IMG/VR virus record: IMGVR_UViG_3300027656_000001
Coordinates: 1 to 45,280 of that record
Source of the DNA: a virus
Lineage: Duplodnaviria > Caudoviricetes
DNA length: 45,280 bases
Direction: 5' to 3' (one strand)
In this document: in pieces, positions 321 through 45,168 of the stretch
How positions within the stretch are numbered: the stretch's first letter is position 1
Layout of the letters: each line of letters begins with the position of its first letter
Program-made: the position numbers and the translations under genes
Notes under the pieces: generated by a model
Databases searched by the model: none
Told to the model about the DNA's origin: nothing
Seen by the model: only the letters and a program-made list of their open reading frames with translations

Positions 321-435
321 GCAGGCACGGAAGGTCCTAGCAGCTGCGCCGACTGGATCGGTCTATGCCGAGATGGCCCGGAAGGTGCTGGAGAAGGCTG
401 GAGGCGGGGGTCTCAGGGTCCCCGAAAAGTTTTAG
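310..435 (+). CDS. Small hypothetical protein (41 aa, MTPEQARKVLAAAPTGSVYAEMARKVL...)
   Basis: Hand-translated; overlaps the upstream stop; late-gene-like G-rich codons. Confidence 0.6.
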   Translation: MTPEQARKVLAAAPTGSVYAEMARKVLEKAGGGGLRVPEKF

Positions 436-830
436 TAGAAAAATCCGTGGGGGGTACGCCTAGTGGTGGCTGGCCAAAAACCCCCCATGGCCCCCTTCTT
501 TTTGAAAATGATTGTTATTCTCGCCGCCGGGGCCGCATCACAAGCCTCATCCTGTCCAACCAGGCGCTTATCCTGTCCAATCAAGTCAGCCGCGCCCACA
601 ACCCCTTGCTATCACTGGGTTGGCCAGCCTCGCGTACCTGCTGAATAGACAGTGATGCAGGGTTTGATCAGGGTTAATGCGACAGAGTGTTGCAGGTTAA
701 GGTTAGATGATCAGCATATGGTATCTATTCGCGTGTGTTCTCATTATTGTGATCTGTGCGTTTTTCTCAACAAGCACCCCTTATTGAGAATGTTAAGAGA
801 TGTAGGGGATTCTTCAGCCTGACCTGGCTG
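436..830. other. Probable physical genome-end / terminal-repeat region (non-coding)
   Basis: Longest gene-free stretch, between right-end genes and early genes; homopolymer runs; ATCCTGTCCAA direct repeat at 549 and 570; composition switches from G-rich to C/A-rich. Confidence 0.55.
504..522 (+). promoter_or_regulatory. Fur-box-like site GAAAATGATTGTTATTCTC
   Basis: 14/19 match to GATAATGATAATCATTATC. Confidence 0.35.
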
Positions 831-866
831 ACCAGTATGGTTACCTCAGTTCAACCAGCCAACGCC

Positions 867-1190
867 ATGAACCGCCCCACCGCAGCTGAGCCCCTCGCAA
901 GCCACGAGACCGCAATCCTCGCGTTCCTGCATCGCCGTCCATTCTCTCGCCAGTTTGAAATAAGCGACGCGCTGAAGCTCCCCGGAGACCACAACAACTG
1001 GCTCACATTTACCGGACTGCGCAGCCTGCAGGCCCGTGGACTTGTCACCCTTGAACTCGTGCCCTGTCCCACCGGCAAAAGCAAACTTAAGATCTGGAGC
1101 CCAACCGACCCACAACCCACCCGCGTCACCCGCGCTTCCCACCGCAACCGCGATAGCCTTCGCCGGCTCTTCTCATTGTTTGGATTCTGA
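867..1190 (+). CDS. Early protein, winged-helix DNA-binding-like
   Basis: ILAFLHRRP-SRQFEISDAL...LRSLQARGLVT fits a MarR/ArsR-like wHTH pattern; ATG 867 preferred. Confidence 0.55.
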   Translation: MNRPTAAEPLASHETAILAFLHRRPFSRQFEISDALKLPGDHNNWLTFTGLRSLQARGLVTLELVPCPTGKSKLKIWSPTDPQPTRVTRASHRNRDSLRRLFSLFGF

Positions 1191-1196
1191 CCTAAT

Positions 1197-1216
1197 CACC
1201 ACACCACACCACACCA
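1197..1216 (+). repeat. Intergenic tandem repeat (CACCA)4
   Basis: Read directly; runs into a CCACAAGCC motif. Confidence 0.85.
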
Positions 1217-1244
1217 CAAGCCAAACCCACCCCCCACAAACACC

Positions 1245-1910
1245 GTGAACACCTCAACACGCGCCAGCTACGCCAACGCTGACCAATGCCATGTCAGCAC
1301 GGCCAGAACGCCTCTGATGCGATCCTATGGTCTCGTTTTGCCGCTCGCCCCGCCGGTGTCATACCGCCTGCGGTGGGACACACACCCTGATGAGCACTGT
1401 GAAGCTATTGCCGCTGAATACCAATGGGCCCTAGATAATGAAGACGCACGTCTGGCCGTCACAGCCCAGTTACGCACTGATGCCCGCAACTGGTTACAAG
1501 CTGAATTGTCCAAGATCACAAGCCTAGGATTCTGGCCCGTATTCACCAATACGGAGAGCTCCCTAGCTGAAGCACTCGCAGCATTCAACCAGCCCCATAG
1601 TCCCAACGCCCTAGTTCAAGTCCCCATCACCAACCTGCACAACGACCCACACCTCGTTTGGACACCCCTTGAAAATCTTCTCTTTCGATTCGTGCACGAC
1701 TATCACCACTGGCTCATTGGTGCCGATGCCACCTTTAACGGAGAGCTCGCAGTTACGCGCCACATACTGATCCCAGCACTACGGCAAAACGACGCCCTTG
1801 CCCGCTTTCTCGCCTCTGAAATCATTGGACAAGCAGCAACCACCATAGCATCTTCAACCGGAGCTTTCCCGGTTCAAATCATCGCCCGTGACATCCTCAC
1901 CCTCATCTAA
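1245..1910 (+). CDS. Early hypothetical protein with His-rich putative metal-binding motif
   Basis: 221-aa ORF; NLLFRFVHDYHH...F.GE.A...SEIIGQ pattern. Confidence 0.7.
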   Translation: MNTSTRASYANADQCHVSTARTPLMRSYGLVLPLAPPVSYRLRWDTHPDEHCEAIAAEYQWALDNEDARLAVTAQLRTDARNWLQAELSKITSLGFWPVFTNTESSLAEALAAFNQPHSPNALVQVPITNLHNDPHLVWTPLENLLFRFVHDYHHWLIGADATFNGELAVTRHILIPALRQNDALARFLASEIIGQAATTIASSTGAFPVQIIARDILTLI

Positions 1911-1923
1911 TCCAATGAATCAA

Positions 1924-1955
1924 ACCCACACACCCACACACCCACACACCCACAC
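1924..1955 (+). repeat. Tandem repeat (ACCCACAC)4
   Basis: Four perfect 8-mers starting 9 nt after ATG 1915. Confidence 0.9.
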
Positions 1956-1979
1956 GATACCATTCTAGCAGCGGGAAAA

Positions 1980-2141
1980 ATGACAATCGATGAACTACGT
2001 TTAGAAAAGATTGACTTACAGCTAGCCATAGATAAATTAGTTGTATCATTCAATCGCCGCCACCCTTCCACTAGAGTGGCGTTGCCTATTAATTACATTT
2101 GGGGCGAACCTCAAGTCACTGTAACCCTCTCCTTGCCATGA
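1980..2141 (+). CDS. Small hypothetical protein (53 aa, MTIDELRLEKIDLQLAIDKL...)
   Basis: Hand-translated; stop overlaps the next ATG (ATGA). Confidence 0.6.
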   Translation: MTIDELRLEKIDLQLAIDKLVVSFNRRHPSTRVALPINYIWGEPQVTVTLSLP

Positions 2142-2764
2142 TTCGCCAACCACTCACAAGCCGAACAACAAGCATCATCGGCACTTACCACCAGGCCAAC
2201 CTTGACGACATCGTCCATGGAAGTGATTGGTACCCATCAGCACACCGAACCGCTATCGCATTATCAGGCCCATTTAAGTGTGGCGTCATCACCTCTGCCG
2301 GTGTCATTGCCGCACTCAGCCCCAACAACAAATGGAAGCGCAACTTGATAGACGCGCAGCGCCTACTAAACGCATACATGCTTGACGGAGCCCACGCGGC
2401 CTCTCAGATTGGAGTCTGCACCTTTGACAACAACAAGGCGAAAGCCCTAGCCATTCTCAAGTTGCAATCCCCCACCGTTGACGACGTGGCAACCGTGCTA
2501 AACGGCCTAAAGATCAGCGCTTTCTATCGCTGCATCCTGGGGGACTCGCAAACCGTCTGCGTCGATGGTCACGCCTATTCCATCTGGATTGGACACCGCG
2601 TCACTACCTATAAAACCCCCAAAATTAGCCCCCGCCTATACGAACAGATCAGCGCGGATTATCGAGCAGCTGCCCGGATCGTATCAACCACCAGCCGACC
2701 CGTAACCCCTGCAGAGCTTCAGGCAATCACATGGCTCACCCATAGACGGATCAGCGCTAGGTGA
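2138..2764 (+). CDS. Conserved-looking phage early protein, possibly HhH-glycosylase-like fold
   Basis: Motifs WY..AH, AGVIAALSPNNKW, KISAFY, VCVDGHA, LQAITW. Confidence 0.7.
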   Translation: MIRQPLTSRTTSIIGTYHQANLDDIVHGSDWYPSAHRTAIALSGPFKCGVITSAGVIAALSPNNKWKRNLIDAQRLLNAYMLDGAHAASQIGVCTFDNNKAKALAILKLQSPTVDDVATVLNGLKISAFYRCILGDSQTVCVDGHAYSIWIGHRVTTYKTPKISPRLYEQISADYRAAARIVSTTSRPVTPAELQAITWLTHRRISAR

Positions 2765-2940
2765 CCCGATACTACCTGATCAACCTCTCACAGCTTGACA
2801 AACAGCTCCAAGCATGGAGAGAATCGATCTGGGCACAGCGCCTAGCTACAGAGTCTGACCGACTAGGCAGGCCATCAGGTCTTAGCCCCCCTGAAACACC
2901 CCCATCACATGAGCCCAAACATTCTGGCCTGCCTTTCTAA
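2761..2940 (+). CDS. Small hypothetical protein (59 aa)
   Basis: GTGA start/stop overlap with the upstream gene; open to TAA 2940. Confidence 0.4.
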   Translation: MTRYYLINLSQLDKQLQAWRESIWAQRLATESDRLGRPSGLSPPETPPSHEPKHSGLPF

Positions 2941-2968
2941 GGTAGGCCCTTTCTTTGCCCCATCGCCT

Positions 2969-2987
2969 GAGAATGATAATCATAAGC
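2969..2987 (+). promoter_or_regulatory. Fur-box-like site GAGAATGATAATCATAAGC
   Basis: 16/19 match to the Fur consensus; intergenic, upstream of a host-type promoter. Confidence 0.45.
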
Positions 2988-3033
2988 ATTCAACCCACCA
3001 GACCACCAGGGGGGGGGGTCCCTCTAGAAAAAA

Positions 3034-3089
3034 TCACAAGCCGACTGGGGCCCGGACGATTCAAAAGCTGTCACAAACCGACTGGGGCC
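3034..3089 (+). repeat. 19-bp direct repeat TCACAA(G/A)CCGACTGGGGCC
   Basis: Copies at 3034..3052 and 3071..3089 with one mismatch; preceded by G10 at 3009..3018. Confidence 0.85.
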
Positions 3090-3110
3090 TGGGCAAATGC
3101 CTCGATCCTG

Positions 3111-3119
3111 TGCTACCAT
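3111..3119 (+). promoter_or_regulatory. Host sigma70 extended -10 (TGnTACCAT)
   Basis: TGCTACCAT, 28 nt upstream of ATG 3147. Confidence 0.55.
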
Positions 3120-3146
3120 TAAGAGGTCCCACAGACATCACGGCTC

Positions 3147-3566
3147 ATGGCCACTCCCAAGCTAAAGCTCCACTCCCTTTCCGATGAGCGTCCTGCCCCC
3201 GACGCCTGCACGGAACTGCTTACATTCGTACAAAGTAAGGACGCTTCCTTATCTTGCGTCGGTTTCAAACGGATTAACAGCGATTACATCCAATGTCGAA
3301 GCATACACGACTCTAATCGTTTCTATGTATCAACAAATGAGATAGCTGCTTTTCTCACTACACACAACCTAGTAGAGCTGCCCGTATCCAAAGAACAGCG
3401 GGTCTACCATAATACCTTAACAGCCTGGATCGCTGCCCTCGACTCTCGCACCTGCAATACGCCCTACTACCACTCCTTGCGGAAAGCCTTCTTCAAGTTC
3501 CACGTCGAACAAGCAGGCTATACCTTCTCAGACGCTCTGTATACCAACTGCTGCTGCGGCTTCTAA
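3147..3566 (+). CDS. Early hypothetical protein, tandem paralog A
   Basis: 139 aa; shares its N-terminus and internal blocks with 3601..4020. Confidence 0.8.
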   Translation: MATPKLKLHSLSDERPAPDACTELLTFVQSKDASLSCVGFKRINSDYIQCRSIHDSNRFYVSTNEIAAFLTTHNLVELPVSKEQRVYHNTLTAWIAALDSRTCNTPYYHSLRKAFFKFHVEQAGYTFSDALYTNCCCGF

Positions 3567-3600
3567 ACTCCTCACAAGCCATCCCACTGCATCTATCTCC

Positions 3601-4020
3601 ATGACCACTCCAAAGCTAAAGCTCCACTCCCTTTCCGATGATCGTCCTTCTCCTTACCCCATCCGAACCCTGATAGTATTCCGGCAATTTGATTGTGATA
3701 ATTTAGCCAGCCACCCCAGTGCCCACTCATCCGACAGCGATTACATCCAAAAGAAAGCATCTAATGACAATAGGCGGCTCTATGTCGATGCAAACGACGC
3801 GGCTAAGTTTCTCAACGACCACAATCTACTAAAGCTGCCCGAAAAACCCAATCCCGCACGCGAAGCATACACAGCAGCCAAAGGCGCATGGCAACGCGCA
3901 TGCATAAGTTATCTCGCTCCCGGACACACATATTATGCAATCAAAAAGCTCTTTATCAGCCACGAACTGCTAAAGGCAGGCTACACCATCTCTGACACGC
4001 TCTACGATCAATACTGCTGA
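3601..4020 (+). CDS. Early hypothetical protein, tandem paralog B
   Basis: 139 aa; TPKLKLHSLSD, SDYIQ, FL..HNL and AGYT.SD.LY shared with paralog A. Confidence 0.8.
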   Translation: MTTPKLKLHSLSDDRPSPYPIRTLIVFRQFDCDNLASHPSAHSSDSDYIQKKASNDNRRLYVDANDAAKFLNDHNLLKLPEKPNPAREAYTAAKGAWQRACISYLAPGHTYYAIKKLFISHELLKAGYTISDTLYDQYC

Positions 4021-4056
4021 AGCCCTTCCCATTTGGTCCCACTCACAAGCCTTCTT

Positions 4057-4293
4057 ATGAGCCCCTGCGAGATTAAAGTTCTACTACTCATCTATGTATC
4101 ACCTCATATCCTATTTCACAACAGCCCAGCCCACTGTGAGGCCCTTGAAAAGTTAGAAAACCTCGGTGCCATTGAGCGTTGTGCCGGTCAACTATGGCAA
4201 CTCACTGCCTTAGGGGATGCCTGGGTGCGCGCCCTCTGTAACGTAAATTGTCCCACCATCGCCTACCTCGACAGCAACGGTAACCCTCTATGA
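4057..4293 (+). CDS. Hypothetical protein (wHTH-like ending LENLGAIER...WQLTALG)
   Basis: ATG 4057 after the motif; coupled to the next ORF. Confidence 0.6.
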   Translation: MSPCEIKVLLLIYVSPHILFHNSPAHCEALEKLENLGAIERCAGQLWQLTALGDAWVRALCNVNCPTIAYLDSNGNPL

Positions 4294-4442
4294 CCCAGCC
4301 CCAAACCATCCAACGTCCCCTACCTGACTTCCTCGAAGACCTCCAACACGCCTACCCCGTGCTACTATCCTCAGGTCCCGACATCGGTGACACCGAGCCT
4401 GAGCCTTCAATCGACATCTTCCAACCCAACGACGTCTACTGA
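4290..4442 (+). CDS. Small acidic hypothetical protein (50 aa)
   Basis: Hand-translated; ATGA and TGATG overlaps on both sides. Confidence 0.55.
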   Translation: MTQPQTIQRPLPDFLEDLQHAYPVLLSSGPDIGDTEPEPSIDIFQPNDVY

Positions 4443-4678
4443 TGCCTGCCTCCGCCTTGGACACCTCCTCTGTCAACCCCATCATCCAAAAAGCTCGATG
4501 GATTGCTGCCAAAATCAAGGCCGCAGGTCAACGTGGCCTGTCTGATGAAGAGAAGATCTTCATTGCCCAACTCTCCTACCGCGCCAATGTCAAGAACGAC
4601 ACGACCGCCAAGCAGCTGGTCAAGAACATCCAAACCGCTCACCTCGAGTTCCAGCTAACCCTGAATGCCGCCAAATGA
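4442..4678 (+). CDS. Hypothetical protein
   Basis: ORF coupled on both sides. Confidence 0.65.
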   Translation: MPASALDTSSVNPIIQKARWIAAKIKAAGQRGLSDEEKIFIAQLSYRANVKNDTTAKQLVKNIQTAHLEFQLTLNAAK

Positions 4679-4998
4679 GCATCGCCTTGGAAAACATGGT
4701 CGACCCTGAAGCCTACGATAAGCTGATCTACAAGGCACTCCACAGTGTCGTAGATCGGGTCATCGAGCTGGGAGCCAAGGCCGACACCTCTGAGGAAAAC
4801 GACAGCCTCCCAGCTGACCCTGAAGATCCAGACTCAGAAGCCACAGGTTTCATCAATGTCCTTCGCTCACAAGCCAACTTCACCCCGGCCGAACGGGCCG
4901 AGTTTCAATCCACTGGAGCCGTCCTCAACCTGCTCATCAACGTGGCTGTCTCTCGCCGCTCAGGTCTGTACATCATCGAAGAGGAAATCAACCCATGA
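4675..4998 (+). CDS. Acidic hypothetical protein
   Basis: ORF with ATGA overlaps. Confidence 0.7.
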   Translation: MSIALENMVDPEAYDKLIYKALHSVVDRVIELGAKADTSEENDSLPADPEDPDSEATGFINVLRSQANFTPAERAEFQSTGAVLNLLINVAVSRRSGLYIIEEEINP

Positions 4999-5396
4999 CT
5001 GACACCTTCCGCGCCCTGTACACTGAGCGGGTAATGCACTTTCGTGGTGTGCCTTTGATACCACCGCTAGACTGCACAGATCCGCAGTCGTGGATTGCTG
5101 AGCAGATCTACCAGATGGGCGCCGCCCAAGCCCAGCCCCAGCCCGAGCCGGTGGCTCCAGTGGCGCCGACTGATGAGGAATGGGACGAACTGTGGGACGA
5201 AAAAGCGGAGTATTTCGCTTTATACGCGGAGGCGAGACGATTCGGTCGCGCCGCCTACGCCGCCGGCCGCCCCAAGTCGCCGAGCTTGAAGGAGCAGGCG
5301 CTTGCCAGGCTGGCAGAACTAGAGAGCGACGAGCCTCGTTACGGGGCTGGAATTGCCACCATCCGCCGCGCCCTGGAGGCCCTGCCCAATGACTGA
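4995..5396 (+). CDS. Modular hypothetical protein (MTDTFRAL...PTDEEW...PSLKEQAL...TIRRALEALP)
   Basis: ORF; G-ending codons more frequent than in neighbours; flanked by 25-bp repeats. Confidence 0.7.
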   Translation: MTDTFRALYTERVMHFRGVPLIPPLDCTDPQSWIAEQIYQMGAAQAQPQPEPVAPVAPTDEEWDELWDEKAEYFALYAEARRFGRAAYAAGRPKSPSLKEQALARLAELESDEPRYGAGIATIRRALEALPND

Positions 5397-5413
5397 CACC
5401 TTCCGCGCCCTGT
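4995..5413 (+). repeat. 25-bp exact direct repeat ATGACTGACACCTTCCGCGCCCTGT
   Basis: 4995..5019 and 5389..5413, each beginning at a start codon. Confidence 0.9.
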
Positions 5414-5514
5414 GCGCTGAGCTGATTGCCCTTTTGGACTGCTTCGGGTCCACATTCAACATTCCTATCGAAGCGATCCGATCAACTAATCTATGCTATA
5501 GTGGGGTGGCATGA
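5389..5514 (+). CDS. Short ORF MTDTFRALCAELI... (41 aa), possibly a truncated remnant
   Basis: Hand-translated; same N-terminus as the 4995 gene; ATGA overlap with 5511. Confidence 0.5.
   Translation: MTDTFRALCAELIALLDCFGSTFNIPIEAIRSTNLCYSGVA
5494..5502 (+). promoter_or_regulatory. Possible host extended -10 (TGnTATAGT)
   Basis: TGCTATAGT, 8 nt upstream of ATG 5511. Confidence 0.35.
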
Positions 5515-5633
5515 TCATCGCTATCATTGTTCCCTTATTTTTACTTGGGATCTACGGTGCTGTCGGGTTGGCATTGTCCCCTGGAAGCCGTTTTGGGCCA
5601 CCTCCCAGCCCTCCTAGTGACACCAGCAGCTAA
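5511..5633 (+). CDS. Small single-TM peptide (40 aa)
   Basis: MIIAIIVPLFLLGIYGAVGLAL followed by a Pro/Ser tail. Confidence 0.5.
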   Translation: MIIAIIVPLFLLGIYGAVGLALSPGSRFGPPPSPPSDTSS

Positions 5634-5635
5634 TT

Positions 5636-5884
5636 ATGAACCACTCCCTCCCGCCTCCTCCGTCCCCCACGGAACTCTCCATCCTCGCCGCAGCCACAAG
5701 CCTCTGCCTAGTCCTCGATGGTCAGCTACCCCGTGACTTCCCTGCGGTCCAGGCTGCAGCCGATCGGGCCCTGGTCTCCGTTGGTTTGCCTCCCATCCAC
5801 CCCTCCACTGTCTTGCCAATCTGGACCACAGCCACTAAACTGATCCAGGACCCAGAGATCTGCCCCCTGCTCTTGAATCCATGA
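5636..5884 (+). CDS. Hypothetical protein
   Basis: ORF in the operon chain. Confidence 0.55.
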   Translation: MNHSLPPPPSPTELSILAAATSLCLVLDGQLPRDFPAVQAAADRALVSVGLPPIHPSTVLPIWTTATKLIQDPEICPLLLNP

Positions 5885-6078
5885 ATCCTGATTTCCCCAT
5901 CAAGCCACCGCTTGGCCTACGTCCTCGGATCGTTGCCGACCATATCCGGGCTATGGAGGTCCACGAAGCCTTAGGACGCGCTTTAGCACCCCGTGTCGGC
6001 GGCGGCCTCCAATACATCCCACTTGAATGGGTCGAAGAACTCATTGAGCTCATCACCCGCCACCAATCCAAATCATGA
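5881..6078 (+). CDS. Hypothetical protein (KPPLGLRPR...IPLEWVEEL)
   Basis: ORF with ATGA overlaps. Confidence 0.7.
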   Translation: MNPDFPIKPPLGLRPRIVADHIRAMEVHEALGRALAPRVGGGLQYIPLEWVEELIELITRHQSKS

Positions 6079-6215
6079 TCACCCCCTCTGAACTTATAAT
6101 CTCTGTCGCCTACTCAACTGCTGCTGGCATTGCTTTAGGTGCAGGAACGTTTTGGCCTTCTGTAGTGATAGTTTCTCTACAGGTCGCATTTATTACTCTG
6201 ACCCTGACTACCTGA
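6075..6215 (+). CDS. Small hydrophobic membrane protein (46 aa)
   Basis: Hand-translated; exactly fills the gap up to the RNAP ATG. Confidence 0.5.
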   Translation: MITPSELIISVAYSTAAGIALGAGTFWPSVVIVSLQVAFITLTLTT

Positions 6216-8696
6216 ATGGCAACCCCCGCCCAAATCCAACGCCAGTTCCAGCGAGAGCTTCAGGCCCACCAGGAAGGCGTCCAACGCCTGCGCCTGGCCA
6301 CAACCACGGCCGAAGCACGACAGTATGCCTCCAGCTCCATCTACGGGCAGAAACTCGTCGACCAGGGCCTGGGGGCCACCATCAAGGCCATCGAGTCGAA
6401 ACGCTCCAGGATTGCCACTGGATCCACCGGTGAATATGCGGCCCACGTCGCCCTCCTCGAGGGTGTCCAATCGTCGACCCTGGCCCTCATCACCCTCAAG
6501 ACCACCATCGACCTGGTGTTCGAGAAGCGCGAAGGCCGCTCTAAAGGTGTCCCCTATGCCAGCGTGGTGTCAGCCATAGGCGGGCGGGTCTTCGACGAAT
6601 GTCTCCTAAGTCAATTCTCACAAGCCCAGCCTGATGCCTACAAAAGCACCCGCATCCACCGCTCCAAGGGCTATGGCTACCGGGTGGCCAAATATCGGGC
6701 AACCATGCGGCGCATCTCCCACGAGGCCCTTAAGTGGCCCCACGGGCACCGGGTCAAGATCGGGGCCTGGCTGCTTGATCGACTCTGCTCTGCCACCAAC
6801 TGGTTCCACTCAGAGCAGACCCAACTCAACGGCCGCAAGAAGCTCATCGTGCTGCGGCCTGACCCCGTGGTATCCAAGACCATCGAGGCTATGCTCCTGG
6901 CTGCTGAGGCTGTCTCGGCCTGCTGCTGGCCTATGCTCTGTGAGCCCAACGACTGGACACCCAATCTGACGGCCTCGCCCGGTGGTTATCTGACCTCCGA
7001 GCTTCGATCTGGGACCCGTTCCTGGCTGATTCGAGGCGTCAGTCATGCCAAGGTTTCTCAGAGCTTTCCAGTTAAAGGGGAAACGCGAAACCGCGACCCC
7101 CTGATTCCTGGGGATGAGATGGGAAATCCTCTCTCCATCCCAGTTAATCCAGCTATAGCTGTTGAGCATGTCACGAATCCTGGGTCTCCTTCTCTCGAGG
7201 TCCCAGTCAGCTTCCTGAACACCATCCAAGGGGTCGCCTATCAGATCAATCAATCCATCTTGGAGGTTGCTCTCAGGTGTCAGGATGCCCGGGTGTCGAT
7301 CGGATCCTTCCGACAGTCTGACCCACTGCCCCTGCCTCACAAGCCAGATCCATGGGAAGAGGCCACCGAAGAGGAGAAGATCACCTACAAGAGGGGCAGG
7401 GTCTTGGTCGAGGAGGAGAACAGCTTACTGCTCCAACGCAACTACCAGACTGCTGAGACAGTTCACATCGCCAAGATGTACCTGAACGAGGAGTCCTTCT
7501 TCTTCCCGTGGTCATTTGACTTCCGGGGTCGGGTCTATCCCCTGGCTAACCACCTCAATCCACAGGGCACCGACTTTGCTCGCTCCCTGCTGGTGTCGGC
7601 CTACTCAGGGCCTGCCGATCGGGAATGGCTTGGCTTCCAGGTCGCCACCACCTTTGGCTTCGGCAAGGAGACCATGGAGGAGAGGCAGAAGTGGGTCGAT
7701 TCCAATTGGGACCTGATCACAGCAGTTGCCACTGAGCCTTTGCTCACTATCTCCAACTGGCAGGGGGCTGATGAGCCGTGGCAGTTTCTTGCTGCCTGCA
7801 TCGAGTATTTCGAGTGCTTCATCGCCTGCACTCGCACCTGGTCAAACCTCCTGGTAGGCTTCGATGCTACCTGCTCTGGCCTCCAACACCTTTCTGCCCT
7901 CACCCGGGACCGCGGCGCTGCTGAGCTGGTCAACGTGGCCCCCACGCCTAAGCCGGCCGACGCCTACAAGACCGTGGCTGAGGCGGCCAAGAAGTACCTC
8001 CCTGAGGAGTTCCACCCTCTGATCACCCGCAAGGTCACCAAGCGGGTCGTGATGTGTCTTCCTTACGGGTTGACCCAAAGCTCTGCTCGGGACTACTTAC
8101 GACAGGCCCTGCCCAAGTCCTTTGGGGTCCCCCTGAATGACCTGGTCGACGCCGTCTACCGTAAGGCCATCCCTGAGGTCCTTCCTGGGCCGATGAAGGC
8201 CCGTGCGTGGATCCAGGAGGCAGTCAATCAGGTCGCCCACGACACAGGCCAGCCAGTGGCCTTCACAAGCCCCTCAGGCTTCCCGGTGATCCTCGACAAG
8301 CGGATCTACCCCACCGAGCTGGTCGACACCAAGCTCCTGGGGAGACGCATCCGGCTAACGGTGGCTGACTTCGACTCCGCCACCGCTCCTCTCAACCAAC
8401 GCAAGGTCACCATTGGGTCGGTTCCGAACCTGATCCACAGCTTCGATGCTGCCCTGCTCCACTTAGCCTTCGAGGCCTGGGAGCGCCCCCTTGCCCTAGT
8501 CCACGACTGCATCTCCACGCTGAGCTGCGACGTGGGCTGGACCATGGAGCACATTCGGGAAACCTTTGCTACGATGTACGAGACGGATCAACTGGGTCGA
8601 TGGGCCGATCAGCTGGGGGTCCCTGTGGATCCCGAGGTCATGATCAACACCCTCAATCCTGATGAGATTCGACAATCCAACTACCTGTTCTGCTGA
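6216..8696 (+). CDS. T7-like single-subunit DNA-directed RNA polymerase (gp1 homolog)
   Basis: DFRGRVYP, DATCSGLQH, RKVTKRVVMCLPYG, PNLIHSFDA and VHDC motifs. Confidence 0.98.
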   Translation: MATPAQIQRQFQRELQAHQEGVQRLRLATTTAEARQYASSSIYGQKLVDQGLGATIKAIESKRSRIATGSTGEYAAHVALLEGVQSSTLALITLKTTIDLVFEKREGRSKGVPYASVVSAIGGRVFDECLLSQFSQAQPDAYKSTRIHRSKGYGYRVAKYRATMRRISHEALKWPHGHRVKIGAWLLDRLCSATNWFHSEQTQLNGRKKLIVLRPDPVVSKTIEAMLLAAEAVSACCWPMLCEPNDWTPNLTASPGGYLTSELRSGTRSWLIRGVSHAKVSQSFPVKGETRNRDPLIPGDEMGNPLSIPVNPAIAVEHVTNPGSPSLEVPVSFLNTIQGVAYQINQSILEVALRCQDARVSIGSFRQSDPLPLPHKPDPWEEATEEEKITYKRGRVLVEEENSLLLQRNYQTAETVHIAKMYLNEESFFFPWSFDFRGRVYPLANHLNPQGTDFARSLLVSAYSGPADREWLGFQVATTFGFGKETMEERQKWVDSNWDLITAVATEPLLTISNWQGADEPWQFLAACIEYFECFIACTRTWSNLLVGFDATCSGLQHLSALTRDRGAAELVNVAPTPKPADAYKTVAEAAKKYLPEEFHPLITRKVTKRVVMCLPYGLTQSSARDYLRQALPKSFGVPLNDLVDAVYRKAIPEVLPGPMKARAWIQEAVNQVAHDTGQPVAFTSPSGFPVILDKRIYPTELVDTKLLGRRIRLTVADFDSATAPLNQRKVTIGSVPNLIHSFDAALLHLAFEAWERPLALVHDCISTLSCDVGWTMEHIRETFATMYETDQLGRWADQLGVPVDPEVMINTLNPDEIRQSNYLFC
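7058..7074 (+). promoter_or_regulatory. Predicted phage-RNAP promoter 1 (TCAGAGCTTTCCAGTTA) inside the RNAP gene
   Basis: 17-bp exact match to 44910..44926, followed by a purine run; same two-site layout (in RNAP gene and near right end) as cyanophage Syn5. Confidence 0.75.
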
Positions 8697-8896
8697 TGTC
8701 CTCCCGATCCCAAGATGCTGCTAAACTGGCGCAACTGGCCACCAAGCATGAAGAAGCCGTCAGTCTACTGCTCCGACTCACTGAGTTCGTAAAAGAGGTC
8801 GATACCCGTCTCTCAGCTGCTCTCAGACAATTAGAAGCCATAGATGAGGCTCACGATGACCTCGAGCGTCGGTTCAGTCAAAGCCTAAGTAGCTAA
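8696..8896 (+). CDS. Small coiled-coil protein
   Basis: TGATG overlap with the RNAP stop; heptad pattern. Confidence 0.65.
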   Translation: MSSRSQDAAKLAQLATKHEEAVSLLLRLTEFVKEVDTRLSAALRQLEAIDEAHDDLERRFSQSLSS

Positions 8897-8980
8897 CACC
8901 CGGGGCTGACCAGCCGCCCCACCCAAGGTCATTCCGACCACTGGATCCAAGACTCACCTCCACCTCCTTTCACAAGCCTC

Positions 8981-12576: not shown

Positions 12577-14372
12577 GACTTGCCTTCGACCTAGAAACCA
12601 ACGGCTTCATGCGGCAGGGGTTCGACACGATCCACTGCCTCGTAACCCGTGACCTAGACACCAACGAGGTCCATGTCTACAACGACCAGGGCACACACGA
12701 GTCGATCTCGACCGGCGTAAGCTACCTGGCTGAAGCTGACCTTCTGGTTGGCCACAACATCATCGGCTACGACATCGAGGTGCTCCACGAGATGTTCCCC
12801 TGGTTCGACGCCAAGGAGATCGAACTCTGCGACACCCTGATCCTTTCCCGGCAGTTCTTCCCCCACGTCCTTGGGATCGACTACAAGATCCGCAAAAAGG
12901 GAATGCCCCTTAAACTCTACGGCCGCCATAGCCTGGAGGCCTGGGGTTGGCGCCTCGACTACCACAAAGGCGACTACAAGGATCATGCCGACTGGTCTGT
13001 TTGGTCACAGGAAATGCAGGATTACTGCGTCCGAGACGTGGAGGTCACAAGCCTCCTCTGGAAACGCCTCCAACCCAAAGCCGAAGCCTTCGCTCGTTCG
13101 GTCAAGATGGAGCACGACTGTGCCCGCATCATGGCTGTTCAGGAACGCTACGGCTGGCCATTCGACGTCAAGGCAGGAGAACAGCTAGAAAGCGTTCTCC
13201 GCTCTGAGTCTGAGGAACTGGCCGCCCAACTCCGTGATGCTTTCCCCTATGTGGCCGGCAAGCCCATGACTCCCAAGCGGAACAACCGCACCCTGGGGTA
13301 CGTCGAGGGAGCGCCCTTCACCAAGCTGACTGACTTCAACCCGACCAGTCGTGACCACATTGCCTGGGTCTTCCAAACCTGGCGCGACTGGCAACCCGAA
13401 GAGTTTACCGACACCGGCAAGCCCAAGATCGACGAGTCGGTCCTCCTGGCCCTGGTCGCCCCCGAAGCGCCCGCCTTTGCCAGGATGCTCGAGCTTCAGA
13501 AGGGCCTCGGTCAGCTCTCGGAGGGCAAGAACTCCTGGCTCAAGTCGGTCACCAGGGAGGGCCGGATCCACCACTCCTGCTCCCTCGCCACCAACACCGG
13601 ACGCAATGCTCATCGTTCCCCCAACCTTGGTCAGGTATCCTCTGACCCTCGCTGTCGTGCTCTATTCGGGCCTGGCAGCGGTTTTGTGGAAGTGGGCGCT
13701 GATGCTTCGGGGCTTGAACTTAGGATGCTTGGCCACTACCTCGCCTTCTTCGACTCGGGCCGCTTCGCTGACATCGTCGTCAACGGCGACATTCACCAGA
13801 TCAACGCCGACGGGGTCACCAAGGCCCTAGGCATCGAGATCACCCGCAAGGCCGTCAAAACAATCACCTACGCCTTCCTCTACGGGGCAGGCGACGAGAA
13901 ACTCGGCCGCACCGTCAACCCTCTCCTGAAGGGCCGGCAGGCCTCTGCCTTAGGCAAGGAGGTCCGGGTGGCCTTCGTGGCCGCCATCCCTGGCCTTGGG
14001 CCCCTCCTGGAGTCCGTCAAGGCTCGCTCCAAGGACGGCACCCTTAAGGCCCTCGACGGCCGGATCCTCTACCTCCAGGGCAAGCAACACGCCGCTCTCA
14101 ACTACCTGCTCCAGTCTGCCGGCGCCATCGTCTGTAAGAACTGGGTGGTGGAGAGCTACCGGAACATTGATGGCGAGCTGCGACTCGGCATCGACTATAC
14201 TCCTCTCGGCTTCATCCACGATGAAATCCAGGTGGCCGTTTCTCCTGTGGAGGTGGACACCGTCGAGCGGATCCTCACCGAGTCGATCGTCACGGTCGGC
14301 AAATCCTTCAAACTCAACGTGCCCCTGGCCTCCGAGGCCAAGCACGGTCCCAACTGGGCAGATTGCCACTAA
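12573..14372 (+). CDS. polA: Family A DNA polymerase with 3'-5' exonuclease (gp5-like)
   Basis: FDLET, GHNIIGYD, DASGLELR, KTITYAFLYG (Tyr at the 762-equivalent position, as in T7), IHDE. Confidence 0.97.
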   Translation: MRLAFDLETNGFMRQGFDTIHCLVTRDLDTNEVHVYNDQGTHESISTGVSYLAEADLLVGHNIIGYDIEVLHEMFPWFDAKEIELCDTLILSRQFFPHVLGIDYKIRKKGMPLKLYGRHSLEAWGWRLDYHKGDYKDHADWSVWSQEMQDYCVRDVEVTSLLWKRLQPKAEAFARSVKMEHDCARIMAVQERYGWPFDVKAGEQLESVLRSESEELAAQLRDAFPYVAGKPMTPKRNNRTLGYVEGAPFTKLTDFNPTSRDHIAWVFQTWRDWQPEEFTDTGKPKIDESVLLALVAPEAPAFARMLELQKGLGQLSEGKNSWLKSVTREGRIHHSCSLATNTGRNAHRSPNLGQVSSDPRCRALFGPGSGFVEVGADASGLELRMLGHYLAFFDSGRFADIVVNGDIHQINADGVTKALGIEITRKAVKTITYAFLYGAGDEKLGRTVNPLLKGRQASALGKEVRVAFVAAIPGLGPLLESVKARSKDGTLKALDGRILYLQGKQHAALNYLLQSAGAIVCKNWVVESYRNIDGELRLGIDYTPLGFIHDEIQVAVSPVEVDTVERILTESIVTVGKSFKLNVPLASEAKHGPNWADCH

Positions 14373-16759: not shown

Positions 16760-18183
16760 CCCAGGACGTCTCCAACCTCATCTCCCGCACCGGTCGGGTT
16801 CAGTCCTGGCTGGATGCCCTAGAGACCCTTAAGCAGCTTGATCCTGCTACAGCCGCTCTGTCCGACCTGGGGCGGCTGCCTGTCTCCTGTACCGTTTTCG
16901 TGGTGCAGGATAAGATGGAAGGCCCTGATGGCATCGAAGACTCTTGGCGGTTCACCTCCTACGCCCTGCGCAACGGTGCCGGCGTCTCGATTCACCTCTC
17001 CAACCTCCGTCCCAGAGGATCCGATAACGGTCGTGGCCTGACCGCTTCCGGCCCCGTGTCCTTTGCCAAGATCTACAGCACCCTCAACGAAATCCTTCGC
17101 CGGGGTGGCACCTTCAAGAATGGAGCCATCACGCTCCACCTCGACTACACCCACCCTGATGCCCTCGAGTTCGTCCAGGCCGATCGCCGGGAGCTCCCGT
17201 GGGTCAAGCGGTGCCTGGATGTGGACGACCGCTTCTTGGAAGACGCCTCGCCAGAACTGATCGATGTCGTGCTCCAGGCCATCGCCTCTGGGGACCTCTG
17301 GCTCAACAAGATCCGGTACGACGACCAAGACAGGCGGATCTACGGCAACGTCTGCCTCGAGGTCTACCTTCCTCACCGAGGGACCTGCCTCCTCCAGCAC
17401 GTCAACCTGGGCAAATGCACCACCTACACCCTGAAGCAGGCCTTTATCGAGGGTATGACCTCCCTGATGGCTATGCACCCCAAGACAGGGGTAGACGCTG
17501 ATGGGGTCTACCTCAGTCCAGCAGTGGATAAGCAAATTGCCCTGGGTATCCTAGGTCTGGCCAACTTCCTGGCTCAGGAAGGTGTGACCTATGCTGATCT
17601 GGCTGCGGTATTCCAAGACAGGCAGGATGCAAGTTCTAAGGCTATAGACCTCTATTGTCGTCTACACACTGCCATCCACGGGGCCGCCTACATCGCTAGC
17701 ATGGCTGGCTTCCACCGCGCCTTCGCCATTGCTCCTACTGCCTCCTGCTCCTACCGCAGCATCGACCTGAACGGTTACGCCTGCACACCAGAGCTGGCTC
17801 CTCCGATCAGCCGCAGCGTCGATCGGGACTCCGGCACCTTCGGGGTCCAGACCTTCGAGTATCCCCCCACTGTGGAGATTGCATCTGAAGTTGGCTGGAA
17901 CGACTACAAGTCCGTGGCCGATGGTATCGTTGGTATCTTCCAGGACACCGGCCTCTTCCACGGCTACAGCTTCAACTCCTGGAGCGACCGGGTCACCTAC
18001 GACCGGGACTTCCTGCAGGACTGGCTCGACAGCCCCCAGACCAGCCTCTACTACGCCCTCCAGGTAGCCCCAGATACACAAGCCAAAGATGACGCCCTGG
18101 GAGCTCTCGATGAGGAGTTCGCCGAGTGGTACGCCTTTGGCAAATCCTTCTGCAGCAGTGCAGCTGGTGGATGCTCGGAATGA
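16756..18183 (+). CDS. nrdA: Ribonucleotide reductase large subunit (cyanopodovirus type)
   Basis: VSCTVF, GNVCLE, TCLL, APTASCS, SLYY, C-terminal Cys pair. Confidence 0.92.
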   Translation: MTQDVSNLISRTGRVQSWLDALETLKQLDPATAALSDLGRLPVSCTVFVVQDKMEGPDGIEDSWRFTSYALRNGAGVSIHLSNLRPRGSDNGRGLTASGPVSFAKIYSTLNEILRRGGTFKNGAITLHLDYTHPDALEFVQADRRELPWVKRCLDVDDRFLEDASPELIDVVLQAIASGDLWLNKIRYDDQDRRIYGNVCLEVYLPHRGTCLLQHVNLGKCTTYTLKQAFIEGMTSLMAMHPKTGVDADGVYLSPAVDKQIALGILGLANFLAQEGVTYADLAAVFQDRQDASSKAIDLYCRLHTAIHGAAYIASMAGFHRAFAIAPTASCSYRSIDLNGYACTPELAPPISRSVDRDSGTFGVQTFEYPPTVEIASEVGWNDYKSVADGIVGIFQDTGLFHGYSFNSWSDRVTYDRDFLQDWLDSPQTSLYYALQVAPDTQAKDDALGALDEEFAEWYAFGKSFCSSAAGGCSE

Positions 18184-27111: not shown

Positions 27112-27557
27112 CCTACACCCTCATCCCAGCCACCACTGATCACGGCATCCTCCTAAACGTCTCCCTCTGCGAGGACGATCGGAGGGAGCTGTGGGCCAGC
27201 TCGACCCAACCTCTGGGTGCTGTCATGCGTGGAATCTTCGACTCCGTGGCCCCTGTGACCATCCTAGACAAGCACGGCAGCATCGCGGCCATTGCGGGGG
27301 TCGTGCATGTGTCAGACGTCCTAGGGGCCCCCTGGATGCTCTCCACGGATGCAACCAAGACGGAGCCCCTGGCGTTCGTGCGGCAGGCTCGAGAATGGGT
27401 AGACCAGCAGCTTACAGTCTACGAGCGTCTGGCCCATCGAGTCTACCGCTACAACCACGATCATATCCGCCTCCTCAAGCTCCTAGGGTTCAAGGTCGGA
27501 GAACCCAAAAACCACTCCCACCTATTCCTCCCCTTTGAACGATGTGTGTACCCATAG
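27108..27557 (+). CDS. Internal virion protein A / GNAT-like protein (gp13-like)
   Basis: DRREL, PWML.T, N..HIRLLK.LGF; position. Confidence 0.75.
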   Translation: MTYTLIPATTDHGILLNVSLCEDDRRELWASSTQPLGAVMRGIFDSVAPVTILDKHGSIAAIAGVVHVSDVLGAPWMLSTDATKTEPLAFVRQAREWVDQQLTVYERLAHRVYRYNHDHIRLLKLLGFKVGEPKNHSHLFLPFERCVYP

Positions 27558-28210
27558 CCCTAGCCCTAGGCGTTGCCTCCTTCGCCACCAGTGCAGTTGG
27601 CTCCATCGCCAGCTACAGCCAGGCCTCTCAGGAAGCCGCAGCCCAGAACCAGTACCAGCAGCGGCAGTTTGAACTGCAGACCCAGGCCTGGAACCAGCAA
27701 GAAGCAGCCTTGAATCGGCAAGAAAAGCTGAACCGAGAAGCTGCATCCAAGGCCTATATCTCGTCACAGCTCCAGATCCAGAACGAATACAAGAAGAGTG
27801 CCATCCAGGCTGACAACATGAGGCTGCAGGCTATGCGCCAGGCTGCTGACATCCAAGCCAGCGGCAAATCTGGCCGCAGCATCGGCATCTTAGCCATGGA
27901 CCCGGATCGGGAATATGGGCGAGACCTGGCTGTTCTAGGCTTGAACCTAGGCTACGCCCGGGACGACTACTACCAGTCGATCGACAGTATCTTCGACCAG
28001 GCAACCTCAGCCAATGCCCAAGTAGCTTCGCAACGCAGCCCAGCTCCAAGTACGCCCACGAAGGTCAAAGGGCCTAGCTCGCTGGGGCTGATTGCTGGTC
28101 TGGGTGGAGCGGCGCTCTCCGGCTATGACACCTTCAGCTCCCTCAAGGCGCCTAAAGGGACGATCCCTAAAACCCAACCCAAGGGCCAGACCCGAACTGG
28201 CTTCGGCTGA
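27542..28210 (+). CDS. Internal virion protein B (gp14-like)
   Basis: MC start, hydrophobic N-terminus, Q/A-rich coil, SG.SGRS. Confidence 0.8.
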   Translation: MCVPIALALGVASFATSAVGSIASYSQASQEAAAQNQYQQRQFELQTQAWNQQEAALNRQEKLNREAASKAYISSQLQIQNEYKKSAIQADNMRLQAMRQAADIQASGKSGRSIGILAMDPDREYGRDLAVLGLNLGYARDDYYQSIDSIFDQATSANAQVASQRSPAPSTPTKVKGPSSLGLIAGLGGAALSGYDTFSSLKAPKGTIPKTQPKGQTRTGFG

Positions 28211-28240: not shown

Positions 28241-31200
28241 ATGGCCATCGACTACAAACCGCAGGGTCGCCGTGTGGCTCTGGGCGGACCTGGATCCCGT
28301 GAATTCAGCCCTGTCCAAGCTGCAGACAACTCGCAGAACGTCCTGAGGCAGGGACAGATGGCCTTGGACAGCTTCGCCAAAGCCCAGGAAGCCACCCTTA
28401 CCAACTCAGCCAAGGATCTGGAGGCACTTGCCCAGCTATCCAAGACTGCCACCACGTTTCTGGTTGATCGTCAGAAGGGCATCAACGAGAATGACCGGAA
28501 GCTAGGCATTGCTGACATCCTCAACGGAGACAGGCAGCCCAAGGCAGAGGCCTTGCAGACCTACCGAGAGAATGCCGAGCAGCTTAAAACGGCAGCCCAG
28601 GGCGAGCAGAGGGCCCTGAATACCCTCCAGGAGACCCAGCCTGTCCAGGCACTTGAGATCCGTGCCAACGATCCAGTGGTCAATGCGTGGCGGTCCTATG
28701 GACAGGCCCAGGGCATAGCCATGCAGGCCGCCGGCAGTGCTGAAGCCCTCCTCCGGCAGACTATGGGTTCGACCGATGCAACCGTAGAAGTAACGGACGC
28801 CCAGGGCAACACCCGGATGATTGCCCCCTCAAGCGCCAGCACACCTTCTGAGTTGAATGCCGTGTGGGCTGTGGCGCTTCAACGCTTCATTGGCACCAGT
28901 GGGTTGGATGGACCCAACGGTGCTATCAATCCATTGCTTGTTTCTGAGTTGGTTGCACCTGCGATCATGAGGATCAAAGGTGTCATTTTTGAAGAACAAT
29001 ATAATCGAATAGCCAAAGATCAAGCCGCCAAAGCTGAAGATCACACCCTAACTGTAATGGCTGCGGCCATTGCTCGGACTGATTTTAACAACCCTGTGGC
29101 CCTCCACGGTCTCTTCCAGGACGGTGCTCAGGCGTTTGTTGATAACGTGCCAGGGATGACTCGTGGAAAGGCCAACGAGCTAGTCTATGATCGCCTTCTG
29201 CAAGCGGCCAAAGGCAAAGGAAGGGTCGACGACGTCACAGCAGTCGAGAATACTCCGATAGCTGAGGACGGTAGTGACTCCAAGGGCACTCTAGGTACCC
29301 GCTTCCCGGAGAAAGCTCAAGCAGCTAGAAATGCCATCCTCGCCCAGAAAGATGCCGACGCTGCAAGACTTAAGGCCGAGCAAAAAGTCACGGTAGAAAA
29401 TATCGTTAATGCCTACAATGCTAGCATACTAAAGGCATCCCCCGATGAGGCAGCCAGGGCATACGATACGACGGCTGCAGCTTTGGCAGAAGCAAGAAAA
29501 CAAGGACTAGAGGGAGCAAGTGAGGCTGAGGTGGAGCACAGCGCCAAACCTCGCCGCCGAGCCGGCCAGCCCTACCTAGATGCTATTATTCAAAAGCAGA
29601 TTGACACGCCAGGCTTCTACAGCAAGGAGCAGATCCAAAAAGAGATCGCTGATGGTGTCCTTCCCCCTGGGTTTGACAATCGGATGACATTCCCTAGTGA
29701 TGTCCTTGCACCGACTCTACAGGGCTGGGAAAAACGAGCCAATGCAGCGGCTAAGGGTTACTTTCTTAATCTCCTACTGGAAAAGAACTTCAATATCAAT
29801 GACGTTGGAGGTGCAAAAATAGCCACCAGGACAAACCACCTAGTTGATGAATTGATGCTAGGATTACGGAAGGGCCTTGCTCAGGATCCCAACCTCAATC
29901 CAGACCGGGCCATTGAGGACATGATGAAAGAGTTCTCGAAGAGGCCTTGGTACCAGATTAACCCCACCAGATCTAAAACACCTGGATTCCCTGTTGACTT
30001 CAAGGAGCCCCTGGAACCCAATCGAATAAGCGTCAACATTGGCGCCAACGGTAGGTCCACCGTGACCGATTACAGGGGATTTCCGTTGCAGCCGATCGAC
30101 TACAAGACTCTACCCATACGACCAAAAGATCGTCTTGTCGAGGAGAGCGCCCTCAAGGAAGCTACTGCAGCCCTCAAAAAAACCGGCTCACTCCCTGACA
30201 ATATGCTGCCTGCTGTGCGGGCCACGGGTCTCACGCAGACCGAGTTCAGTAGAGACCAGATTAAAGCCCCTCGAGGCCTTGCTGGCTTAGAAGCCCGGGC
30301 ATCCCAGGGCCTACAGGAGGCCATCCTGGACAACCCCCGGTCGACACCTATCGAGCGTGTCTACGCCCAGCTGCAGATCCAACGGAAACAGCTGCTCCTG
30401 CAAAACCAACAGGTAGCTCCTGGCGCCCTCGCTCCTGAGACCGCAGACCTCCTTAGAGATCTCGGCAAGAAGGAAGGAGGCGCCCGGGCCTACGAAGCGG
30501 CCAACAGAGGAGCCGCCATGGATCTGCCCAACGGCATCCCAGGCCTCACCAGCATGACCATCAAGCAGGTTCAAGCCTCCGGGGCACGTCACGTTGGCAA
30601 GTACCAGTTCAAGCTGGGTCAGGGTCAGGCTCTTGCCGAACTCACGACTCGCTTGGGCCTCACCGGCAACGAGAAGTTTACCCCTGAGCTCCAGGACCGC
30701 ATGGCTGCCGAACTGATCTGGGGTGGCTGGAAGCGTCCTGCTCTCACGGCCTACCTCAAGGGCGGCGGCAACCTCGAGCAAGCTGTAGCGGACTTCAACA
30801 ACGAGTGGGAAGCCGGCAAATTGACCTTCAACGCTCGACCATACCTCCGAAAGATGCGAGCCGCCTATCAGGTTCGTGGCGCAGGGGCAGTGGGTCAGGC
30901 TGGGAACTTCAGCAAGGCCAACGTCACCTCTATTGACTACGAGCGCAAGGGTCGCGGTGACTCCTACCAACCAGGAGGGGTCGACATTAACTTCCAGGAC
31001 AAGCAATTCCCTGCCCTTCTTCCAGGCAAAGTCATCGAGATCGGTGAGCAGAAAGGAGGCTACGGCCTCTGGGTCGTAACTGAACATGAAGATCCCAAGA
31101 CAGGCCAACCTTTCCAGCTGATCAATGCCCACCTGGATGCCATCCACGTCAAGGAAGGACAGACCCTCCAGACCGGCACCGTCCTGGGCCGCCAGGGAAG

Positions 31201-31368: not shown

Positions 31369-31398
31369 AGCCCCGCTGGATGCGTCCGGTGGGGTTTT
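31369..31398 (+). terminator. Terminator-like hairpin between the gp15- and gp16-like genes
   Basis: GCCCCGCTGGA-TGCG-TCCGGTGGGGT followed by TTT. Confidence 0.55.
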
Positions 31399-31421
31399 CG
31401 GTATCACCTGCTCCTACACCC

Positions 31422-44909: not shown

Positions 44910-44926
44910 TCAGAGCTTTCCAGTTA
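44910..44926 (+). promoter_or_regulatory. Predicted phage-RNAP promoter 2 near the right end (phi-OR analog)
   Basis: Identical 17-mer to 7058..7074; followed by hairpins and an AT-rich tract. Confidence 0.75.
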
Positions 44927-45168
44927 CAAGAGGGACAACGCGAAACCGCGCCCCCTGGATTCAGCCTGGTAGATGGGGATGAGACTAGAAAAAACCTCTA
45001 TAGCTTTATTCAGCTTCTTTTCTCTTTATCTCCTCATCATCCCAGTTAACATGACTATATAGTACTATAGTTGCTAGATCCTCCCATCCCCTTCTGTGTG
45101 GGTAGGGATGGCTGGGTCCAGCAGCACATGCTCAAAATCCCTTTGTGTGCCACTGGCACTGCTGCCAC

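Follow-up and report, generated by a model that had tools for sequence, protein, structure and literature searches.

Here we report a short DNA word tiled in one direction over the left end of a freshwater T7-like cyanopodovirus genome, the IMG/VR virus record IMGVR_UViG_3300027656_000001 (Duplodnaviria; Caudoviricetes), whose whole stretch of 45,280 nucleotides is called the window below. The word YCACAAGCC occurs in 13 exact copies within 538..8978, every one on the + strand and none reversed (538, 1214, 1516, 2154, 3034, 3572, 4043, 4867, 5694, 6618, 7337, 8263 and 8970), and this array is a selected, one-directional DNA signal that extends from the presumed left end through the phage RNA polymerase (RNAP) gene. 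The reading we favour, with a probability of roughly 0.35, is that a phage-encoded and probably ejected protein, with the gp15/gp16 type of internal virion protein as candidate, reads the word during genome entry; each phage lineage would place a private word every 0.7-1.5 kb, and the ejected proteins would use it as a ratchet or clamp, giving sequence-programmed entry steps.

An earlier examination of the letters alone (the sequence-only reading) had described the array, and its coordinates proved exact, with only two further copies in the window (13045 and 33097), for a total of 15 on the + strand and 0 on the - strand. By comparison, dinucleotide shuffles of the window contained 1.34 copies on average and never more than 5 in 100 shuffles. 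The 8-mer core, CACAAGCC, has one extra copy at 18077 (in total 16 on + and 0 on -). The top word of the early region, TCACAAGCC, was observed 11 times against 0.19 expected from a second-order Markov model of that region (log10 p -15.6), and across 24 control windows, taken from seven phage records, no dispersed 8- or 9-mer did better than -7.1. Up to 500 bp beyond the RNAP gene there are 1.48 copies per kb, divided 7 to 6 between the two halves of this early part; after that the density drops to 0.08 per kb.

The gaps between copies are 302-926 bp (mean 703, maximum 926, coefficient of variation 0.27), which confirms the even spacing noticed earlier (p ~1.5e-5 versus random placement between the same end copies). 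Seven copies lie inside 13 tested early open reading frames (ORFs), in all three frames, against 0.82 expected and a maximum of 4 in 1000 synonymous resamplings, as the sequence-only reading had supposed in calling the motif not protein-driven; one ORF start of this set (4058) was mis-framed, and that ORF contains no copy. Late coding copies also exceed the synonymous-resampling expectation (3 vs 0.30). The Markov model, the synonymous resampling and the control windows together rule out a protein-driven or compositional origin. A tandem repeat or structured-RNA unit was likewise rejected, with the flanks of the copies unconserved and an accessibility signal absent; the unpaired probability was 0.586 vs 0.581 over 101 sites (p 0.45), close to background, and RNA single-strandedness is therefore not under selection at these sites.

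The window is a complete genome in which the RNAP is followed by the typical genes for replication, head, tail, ejection and terminase, in agreement with the T7-like cyanophage assignment made from the letters. The T7-like single-subunit RNAP gene (6216..8696, + strand; phrog_414, E 3e-180) contains three array copies, and its product is 36-38% identical to the RNAPs of S-CBP42, S-CBP2, Syn5 and P60. The record is circular by assembly, its ends overlapping by 99 bp, and so does not show the physical left end, which we place by inference at ~430-500 from the gene order terminase - junction - early genes and from a junction sequence common to the related records L008 and L044. The putative genome-end or concatemer-junction region (425..600), with C/G runs and GTCCAA repeats, resembles the same place in these two records, its exact end likewise being an estimate. 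Fixed ends with short terminal repeats are described for related phages in passages of PMC3350473. The array begins at this presumed left end and stops ~280 bp after the RNAP gene; the earlier description of the region as first-injected holds in that the array covers DNA that probably enters first and is transcribed by the host.

The array is conserved in relatives with turnover of individual sites. Five records with RNAPs 73-88% identical (L001, L005, L006, L008 and L010) have the same word on the same strand. Within the RNAP gene, copies fall at four alignment positions and sites have come and gone: L008 is missing two of the window's sites and has gained a new one, and the post-RNAP copy in L006 lies ~40 nt earlier than in the other relatives. 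Among the late + strand copies, the one in the DNA polymerase gene (13045..13053) has the same place in L001, L006, L008 and L010, and the CACAAGCC copy in the ribonucleotide reductase gene (18077..18084) is present in L010 too; the third lies in the gp16-like gene (33097..33105). In a sister clade, with RNAPs 43-47% identical to that of Syn5, the word was found in 22 of the 22 loci checked, 67 forward vs 2 reverse, many of these being homologous sites in short fragments; sense:reverse counts in five longer records of the clade were 12:1, 7:0, 6:0, 5:1 and 6:2. Carriers of CACAAGCC form one clade in the RNAP tree (a fast tree without support values) and in the gp16 tree.

Other cyanopodoviruses carry words of their own. 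The survey took in 70 early regions 5 kb or longer, 6 of them duplicates; 14 of the 64 distinct regions had a dispersed word at the cut-off of log10 p -8.5 or better. Nine of these 14 (the window, L006, L008, S-CBP2, S-CBP42, L023, L061, L094 and L161) have an array of the window's type, four belong to a CAAGGAC/AGGAC class that may partly be a ribosome-binding or coding signal, and one has CTGTCCACT with reverse copies. The array word is TCACCATCA in Syn5, P60 and S-CBP2, where forward:reverse counts of YCACCATCA over the whole genomes are 21:0 (Syn5), 9:0 (S-CBP2) and 8:0 (P60); the Syn5 early-region word scored -7.0 in the 64-region survey and -8.5 in a separate Markov analysis. S-CBP42 uses CCACGAGAG, S-TIP28 and L023 use ATCTCTCAT, L061 uses TCACTCTCA and L094 uses CACATTCA. 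The lineage words differ by near single-base steps (TCACCATCA, TCACAATCA, TCACACTCA, TCACTCTCA; counts are mixed in L052 and L058), as expected for a drifting protein-site pair. Jointly, 12 other arrays exceed chance in their regularity (Fisher p 1.4e-6, with array ends chosen by eye); taken alone, those of L061 and L006 are not regular. No comparable array appeared in k-mer scans of S-CBP1, SS120-1, P-SSP7, S-SBP1 and P-RSP2, and the first 10 kb of P-RSP2, which we take to lack an RNAP, contained nothing above control level.

Several further early repeats were noted during these scans. A second one-strand word class, CA[AT]GGAC / AAGGACGCA, occurs in many clade-B cyanopodoviruses (L017, L018, L072, L083, L097, L101-L106, L127 and L153) in up to 20 copies and looks partly codon- or ribosome-binding-site-like. 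TATCCAC, TGTCCAC and CATCCAC, which presumably resemble a DnaA box, are among the top early words of L016 (P-SSP7), L014 (S-CBP1), L089 and L155, near control level. A repeated leader with the core CAACAATC precedes five early genes of the pelagiphage HTVC019P (L433, 1030-7365), each time between genes; because it is purely intergenic, the repeated TCAACAATC of this phage was treated as a different leader element. The CCGCAAG repeats of T7 look by eye like GCAA-tetraloop hairpins.

The sequence-only reading explained the array as mimicry of host Chi. On this view RecBCD entering at the left end meets Chi and stops degrading the DNA or starts recombination, as in phages LLS and MD8. All copies are on the + strand with a G/T-rich reading on the minus strand, which is the active orientation for entry at a nearby end, given the left end inferred above. 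Of 60 genomes chosen from the host family, 58 have a RecC family match, one host RecC example matches E. coli RecC at E 1e-68, several of the words resemble a minus-strand G-N-N-N-G-T-G-R, and annotation of the scanned ORFs yielded no gp5.9-like inhibitor. The motif had also been called one base from E. coli Chi; this is true only of the two CCAC copies in the array, and the dominant minus-strand form, GCTTGTGA, is two bases away. Passages of PMC12315714 give precedent for terminal polar Chi clusters in LLS and MD8 together with the orientation rule; marine picocyanobacteria are stated to possess recBCD (PMC5101192), and functional Chi can be unpolarised or undetectable in a host (PMC8022716).

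Counts in hosts do not show the excess expected of Chi. Across 251 host-family genomes, among which the isolation hosts themselves were not identified, CACAAGCC reaches at most ~62 copies per Mb (uniform expectation 30.5), and in many of the larger genomes it is rarer than its reversed control; E. coli Chi, for comparison, has 1008 copies (217 per Mb) and exceeds its control 4.2-fold. Three closed genomes were sampled over 1.2 of 2.75 Mb, 0.8 of 2.41 Mb and 0.8 of 2.45 Mb, and in these the window's word had observed/expected ratios of 0.5-1.5, with a leading-strand skew not beyond third-order Markov composition, so that neither the host over-representation nor the replichore polarity anticipated by the sequence-only reading was found. 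One of 12 words tested, TGAATGTG, had an observed/expected ratio of 3.4 in one closed genome, without leading-strand skew, and no other 8-mer stood out in the samples either. Since no Chi of any sequence stood out, the polarity test has limited power and, with the window's true host unidentified, this negative is not final. TCACAAGCC has 3-22 copies per host genome in five of five genomes, and the S-TIP28 word ATCTCTCAT only 0-27 copies per chromosome in 111 host genomes.

The variety of the words speaks against Chi as well. Aligned N-terminal RecC segments, which presumably line the Chi channel as in E. coli, are nearly invariant in 12 host proteins (51-98% identity), differing from E. coli at Q38, S39, T40, L64, W70, L134 and Q137, residues that we take to have a role there. 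As these segments are nearly invariant while the phage words number at least six, a single RecC type is unlikely to have that many exact 9-mer targets. Nor do the words track the host, since the same or related hosts carry phages with another word or none: on WH8109, the YCACCATCA count of Syn5 (21:0) stands against 0:3 in S-TIP37, and five siphoviruses of Synechococcus hosts had no array (best word -7.5, log10 p). S-TIP28, whose host CC9605 is presumably a clade II strain, has a word that differs from TCACCATCA. TCACCATCA itself occurs in phages whose hosts belong to clades 5.1-II, 5.1-VI and 5.2-CB4 (host rows of Table 1 in PMC4646655). Of the RecBCD proposal, the orientation and the presence of RecC hold and the mimicry itself is not supported, there being no host excess or polarity in the genomes examined, and words that vary despite the near-invariant RecC segments; we consider host Chi distinctly unlikely, and the words are likely not a copy of host Chi but a phage-private signal.

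A comparison of two phages bears on the RNAP as a possible reader. L023 and S-TIP28 (L444) share the word ATCTCTCAT, near-identical small early genes and a 96% identical SSB, yet their RNAPs are unrelated (35% identical), and that of L023 is 77% identical to the RNAP of S-CBP42, whose word L023 does not have. Both RNAP genes carry three copies of the shared word. To judge from these identities, the pair represents an RNAP gene replacement in which the new gene carries the resident word and, because the word survived the swap, the phage RNAP is unlikely as reader. It is accordingly hardly credible that the array is a pause or termination signal of class II type that blocks read-through of the phage's own RNAP into the early genes, even if the word resembles T7's ATCTGTT in being short, polar and on the sense strand. 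ATCTGTT sits separately at 238 in Syn5 and is absent from the window; Syn5 RNAP is reported to give terminated products on a template where T7 RNAP stops at ATCTGTT (passages of PMC9624206). A T7-type class II pause was thus rejected, the word being neither ATCTGTT nor a follower of the phage RNAP. Two other roles were set aside: a primase recognition site of T7 gp4 type, for which sites should lie on the lagging template throughout the genome and turn round beyond the origin, whereas no reversed ones were found (0 reverse copies in the right 36 kb and 0 in Syn5), and a phage promoter, for which there is a separate candidate at 7058-7105 and ~44910.

Polarity and even spacing lead us to expect a direction-sensitive reader of limited range, since even spacing means that large gaps are selected against; the word that it reads drifts with the phage lineage and is rare in hosts. 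We propose the ejected proteins as this reader; no other phage proteins are sure to be there before expression of the RNAP gene begins. Genes of the gp14, gp15 and gp16 types are all present on the + strand of the window, by family matches and, for gp15, by position: a gp14-like internal virion protein (27542..28210; PF24072), a protein in the gp15 position with a C-terminal M23 peptidase (28241..31333), and the gp16-like candidate reader (31380..35816; phrog_6651, E 6e-121), for which a PDB sequence search gave no match. The left end would enter the cell first; the ejected gp15/gp16-type protein would recognise each copy of the word on double-stranded DNA, and each copy would permit or clamp the following step, of less than about 1 kb, until the RNAP gene has entered and the phage's own polymerase can carry on. 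For T7, a clamp on the genome ~850 bp after entry has been proposed for gp16-C, the remainder then being pulled in by the host and later the phage RNAP, and in point mutants entry no longer depends on transcription (passages of PMC8954989); the gaps in the window are all below 930 bp, against this ~850-bp step.

Several results weigh against entry paced by an ejected protein. The same passages report that T7 gp16-C binds DNA without sequence specificity in vitro (PMC8954989). No protein was found that co-varies with the word: in the 16 of 19 core genes scored (terL, terS and the small post-RNAP gene were left out), none had a clear excess of word-matching columns, and in gp14, gp15 and gp16 motif-pattern columns were no commoner than control patterns. 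P60 and S-CBP42 have gp16 proteins 42% identical and different words, while those of P60 and S-CBP2 are 20% identical with the same word; among five key phages neither ejection-protein similarity nor diagnostic columns follow the word, although the CACAAGCC carriers are one gp16 clade. The survey leaves many cyanopodoviruses without an array, and no comparable array was found in T7, SP6, phiKMV and two pelagiphages (including HTVC011P). In Syn5, 12 copies persist beyond the RNAP gene, next to 9 early ones. Finally, models with a step at the RNAP gene or with a gradual fall-off from the left end describe six complete genomes about equally well (log-likelihood -728.1 with 6 parameters for the step, -724.3 with 12 for the fall-off).

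The tapering density and the polarity toward one end, which fit such a gradient as well as a step, would also suit a late end-maturation or packaging signal, a phage-private counterpart of Chi or KOPS in which the terminase, the portal or a phage exonuclease reads polar words as it nears the last-packaged left end. A lineage-specific, host-rare word agrees with a phage reader of this kind. We nevertheless regard it as unlikely: terminase similarity does not follow the word, the P60 terminase being closest to those of L025 and S-TIP28, which carry other words; exonuclease and portal have no excess of motif-pattern columns (the terminase was not column-scored); and the right end has no mirror array.

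The alternative that the sequence-only reading itself offered, a translocation or transcription signal, survives. As an early-transcription signal, which we hold to be possible if doubtful, the word would be recognised, on DNA or on nascent RNA, by a host factor or by a small protein that the phage makes early; at intervals of about 700 nt, this reader would either restore the processivity of host RNA polymerase or process the early message. Such a signal would also pace entry, since T7-type genomes are drawn in by transcription. The word is confined to the sense strand and spans the probably host-transcribed region, several copies shortly precede a start codon (8970, 4043 and 3572; also in Syn5, L061 and L094), and a short-lived modification would favour even spacing. 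On the other hand, the distance to the start codon is not fixed, as the ~40-nt shift in L006 shows, the accessibility and flanking-structure signal is absent over the 101 sites, and copy 538 seems by eye to lie ahead of the promoter-like region. Phages sharing a word have no early protein in common, in a comparison that may overlook small proteins: matches to the winged-helix-like first ORF numbered fewer than two among 16 other genomes, and DUF7178 occurs with several words.

The rarity of the words in hosts, their variation between phages and the want of a co-varying phage gene could also be accounted for by a strain-variable host DNA-tracking enzyme, such as a type III/ISP restriction-type translocase or another defence helicase, that binds the word; head-to-tail sites would avoid cutting, and the enzyme would pull the DNA in or be titrated. 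EcoKI-driven entry of T7 is a precedent. One word is kept across phages whose RNAPs are only ~40-47% identical, longer than restriction specificities usually persist, and we know of no contiguous 9-bp asymmetric restriction sites, which makes this explanation a long shot.

Among known systems, the array recalls sequences that govern the movement of DNA. The injection-stop signal of T5 is a sequence that governs DNA transfer, confined to one stop region and not a tiled word, and the KOPS octamers form a polar word gradient read by the translocating protein FtsK as a signal of the host chromosome; to our knowledge, neither is lineage-variable in the way of the window's word. The Chi clusters of LLS, MD8 and P1 are alike in being a short polar word toward one end, laid over genes in the orientation for an entering enzyme, and differ in being the host's known Chi, read by RecBCD (passages of PMC12315714); the window's array is host-rare, lineage-variable and evenly spaced, and spans the early region. 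Entry of T7 through the gp14-gp15-gp16 ejectosome involves the same gene set, and its ~850-bp clamped first step is close to the gap size; the stretch under the window's array has to enter before any phage RNAP can be made. T7 itself lacks an array of this kind, its gp16-C is non-specific in vitro, and the passages of PMC8954989 report no sequence signal for entry. The class II pause ATCTGTT of T7 (passages of PMC9624206) is also a short polar word near the left end; it is another sequence, separate in Syn5 and absent from the window, and the array word does not follow the RNAP. Full-text literature searches, from whose scope most subscription papers and the Syn5 and P60 genome papers fell out, returned no description of these arrays.

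Other elements were noted in and around the array. A putative phage promoter with a CGCG-AAAC-CGCG hairpin, ~45 bp long, lies on the + strand at 7058..7105 in a clade-specific insertion of the RNAP protein and recurs near the right end (~44910-44960); it is also found in L001 (position 2301) and L008 (4537), and the Syn5 promoter presumably likewise falls within the Syn5 RNAP gene (L012:4929). The region is present in four freshwater metatranscriptome runs; long contigs of these start near 7053-7100, which was not used as evidence, as RNA starts and levels cannot be read from contigs and assemblies may break at the repeat. A non-coding hairpin element (8902..8945, +) with a downstream box follows the small post-RNAP gene and immediately precedes the last array copy; it is highly conserved in the window, L001, L005, L006, L007, L008 and L010, and is possibly a processing site or origin element. 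The first early ORF (867-1190) is winged-helix-like (Atlas leads at or below 0.9, with MarR_2 on 42% of one cluster) and not common to relatives with the same word. A DUF7178 protein (2099-2764) is common to S-CBP2, S-CBP42, L008 and L044 and has a VDxH motif that by eye is like that of HhH-GPD DNA glycosylases. Two tandem paralogous genes of 139 aa (3146-3566 and 3600-4020) have a shared 61-bp start; ahead of the pair, 3034-3093 contains a 22-bp direct repeat, of which the first unit opens with the array motif, just upstream of an extended -10-like sequence.

The control of slow, stepwise DNA entry in podoviruses is an old open question, and the hosts of these phages are among the most abundant photosynthetic bacteria. 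The arrays occur in the cultured phages Syn5, P60, S-CBP2, S-CBP42 and S-TIP28, which makes them directly testable, with natural controls at hand in S-TIP37, which grows on the host of Syn5 without its word, and in the RNAP swap between S-TIP28 and L023. The feature works like Chi or KOPS, as a polar word for a tracking protein, yet fails the tests for Chi, and there is a real chance that it represents a new mechanism. Should the words prove to be Chi after all, they would be the first picocyanobacterial Chi sequences. Whichever reader is involved, a fast-drifting polar code of 8-9 bp points to an undescribed DNA-tracking protein; if reading by ejected proteins is correct, podovirus DNA injection would follow a code written in the sequence and co-evolving with a virion protein.

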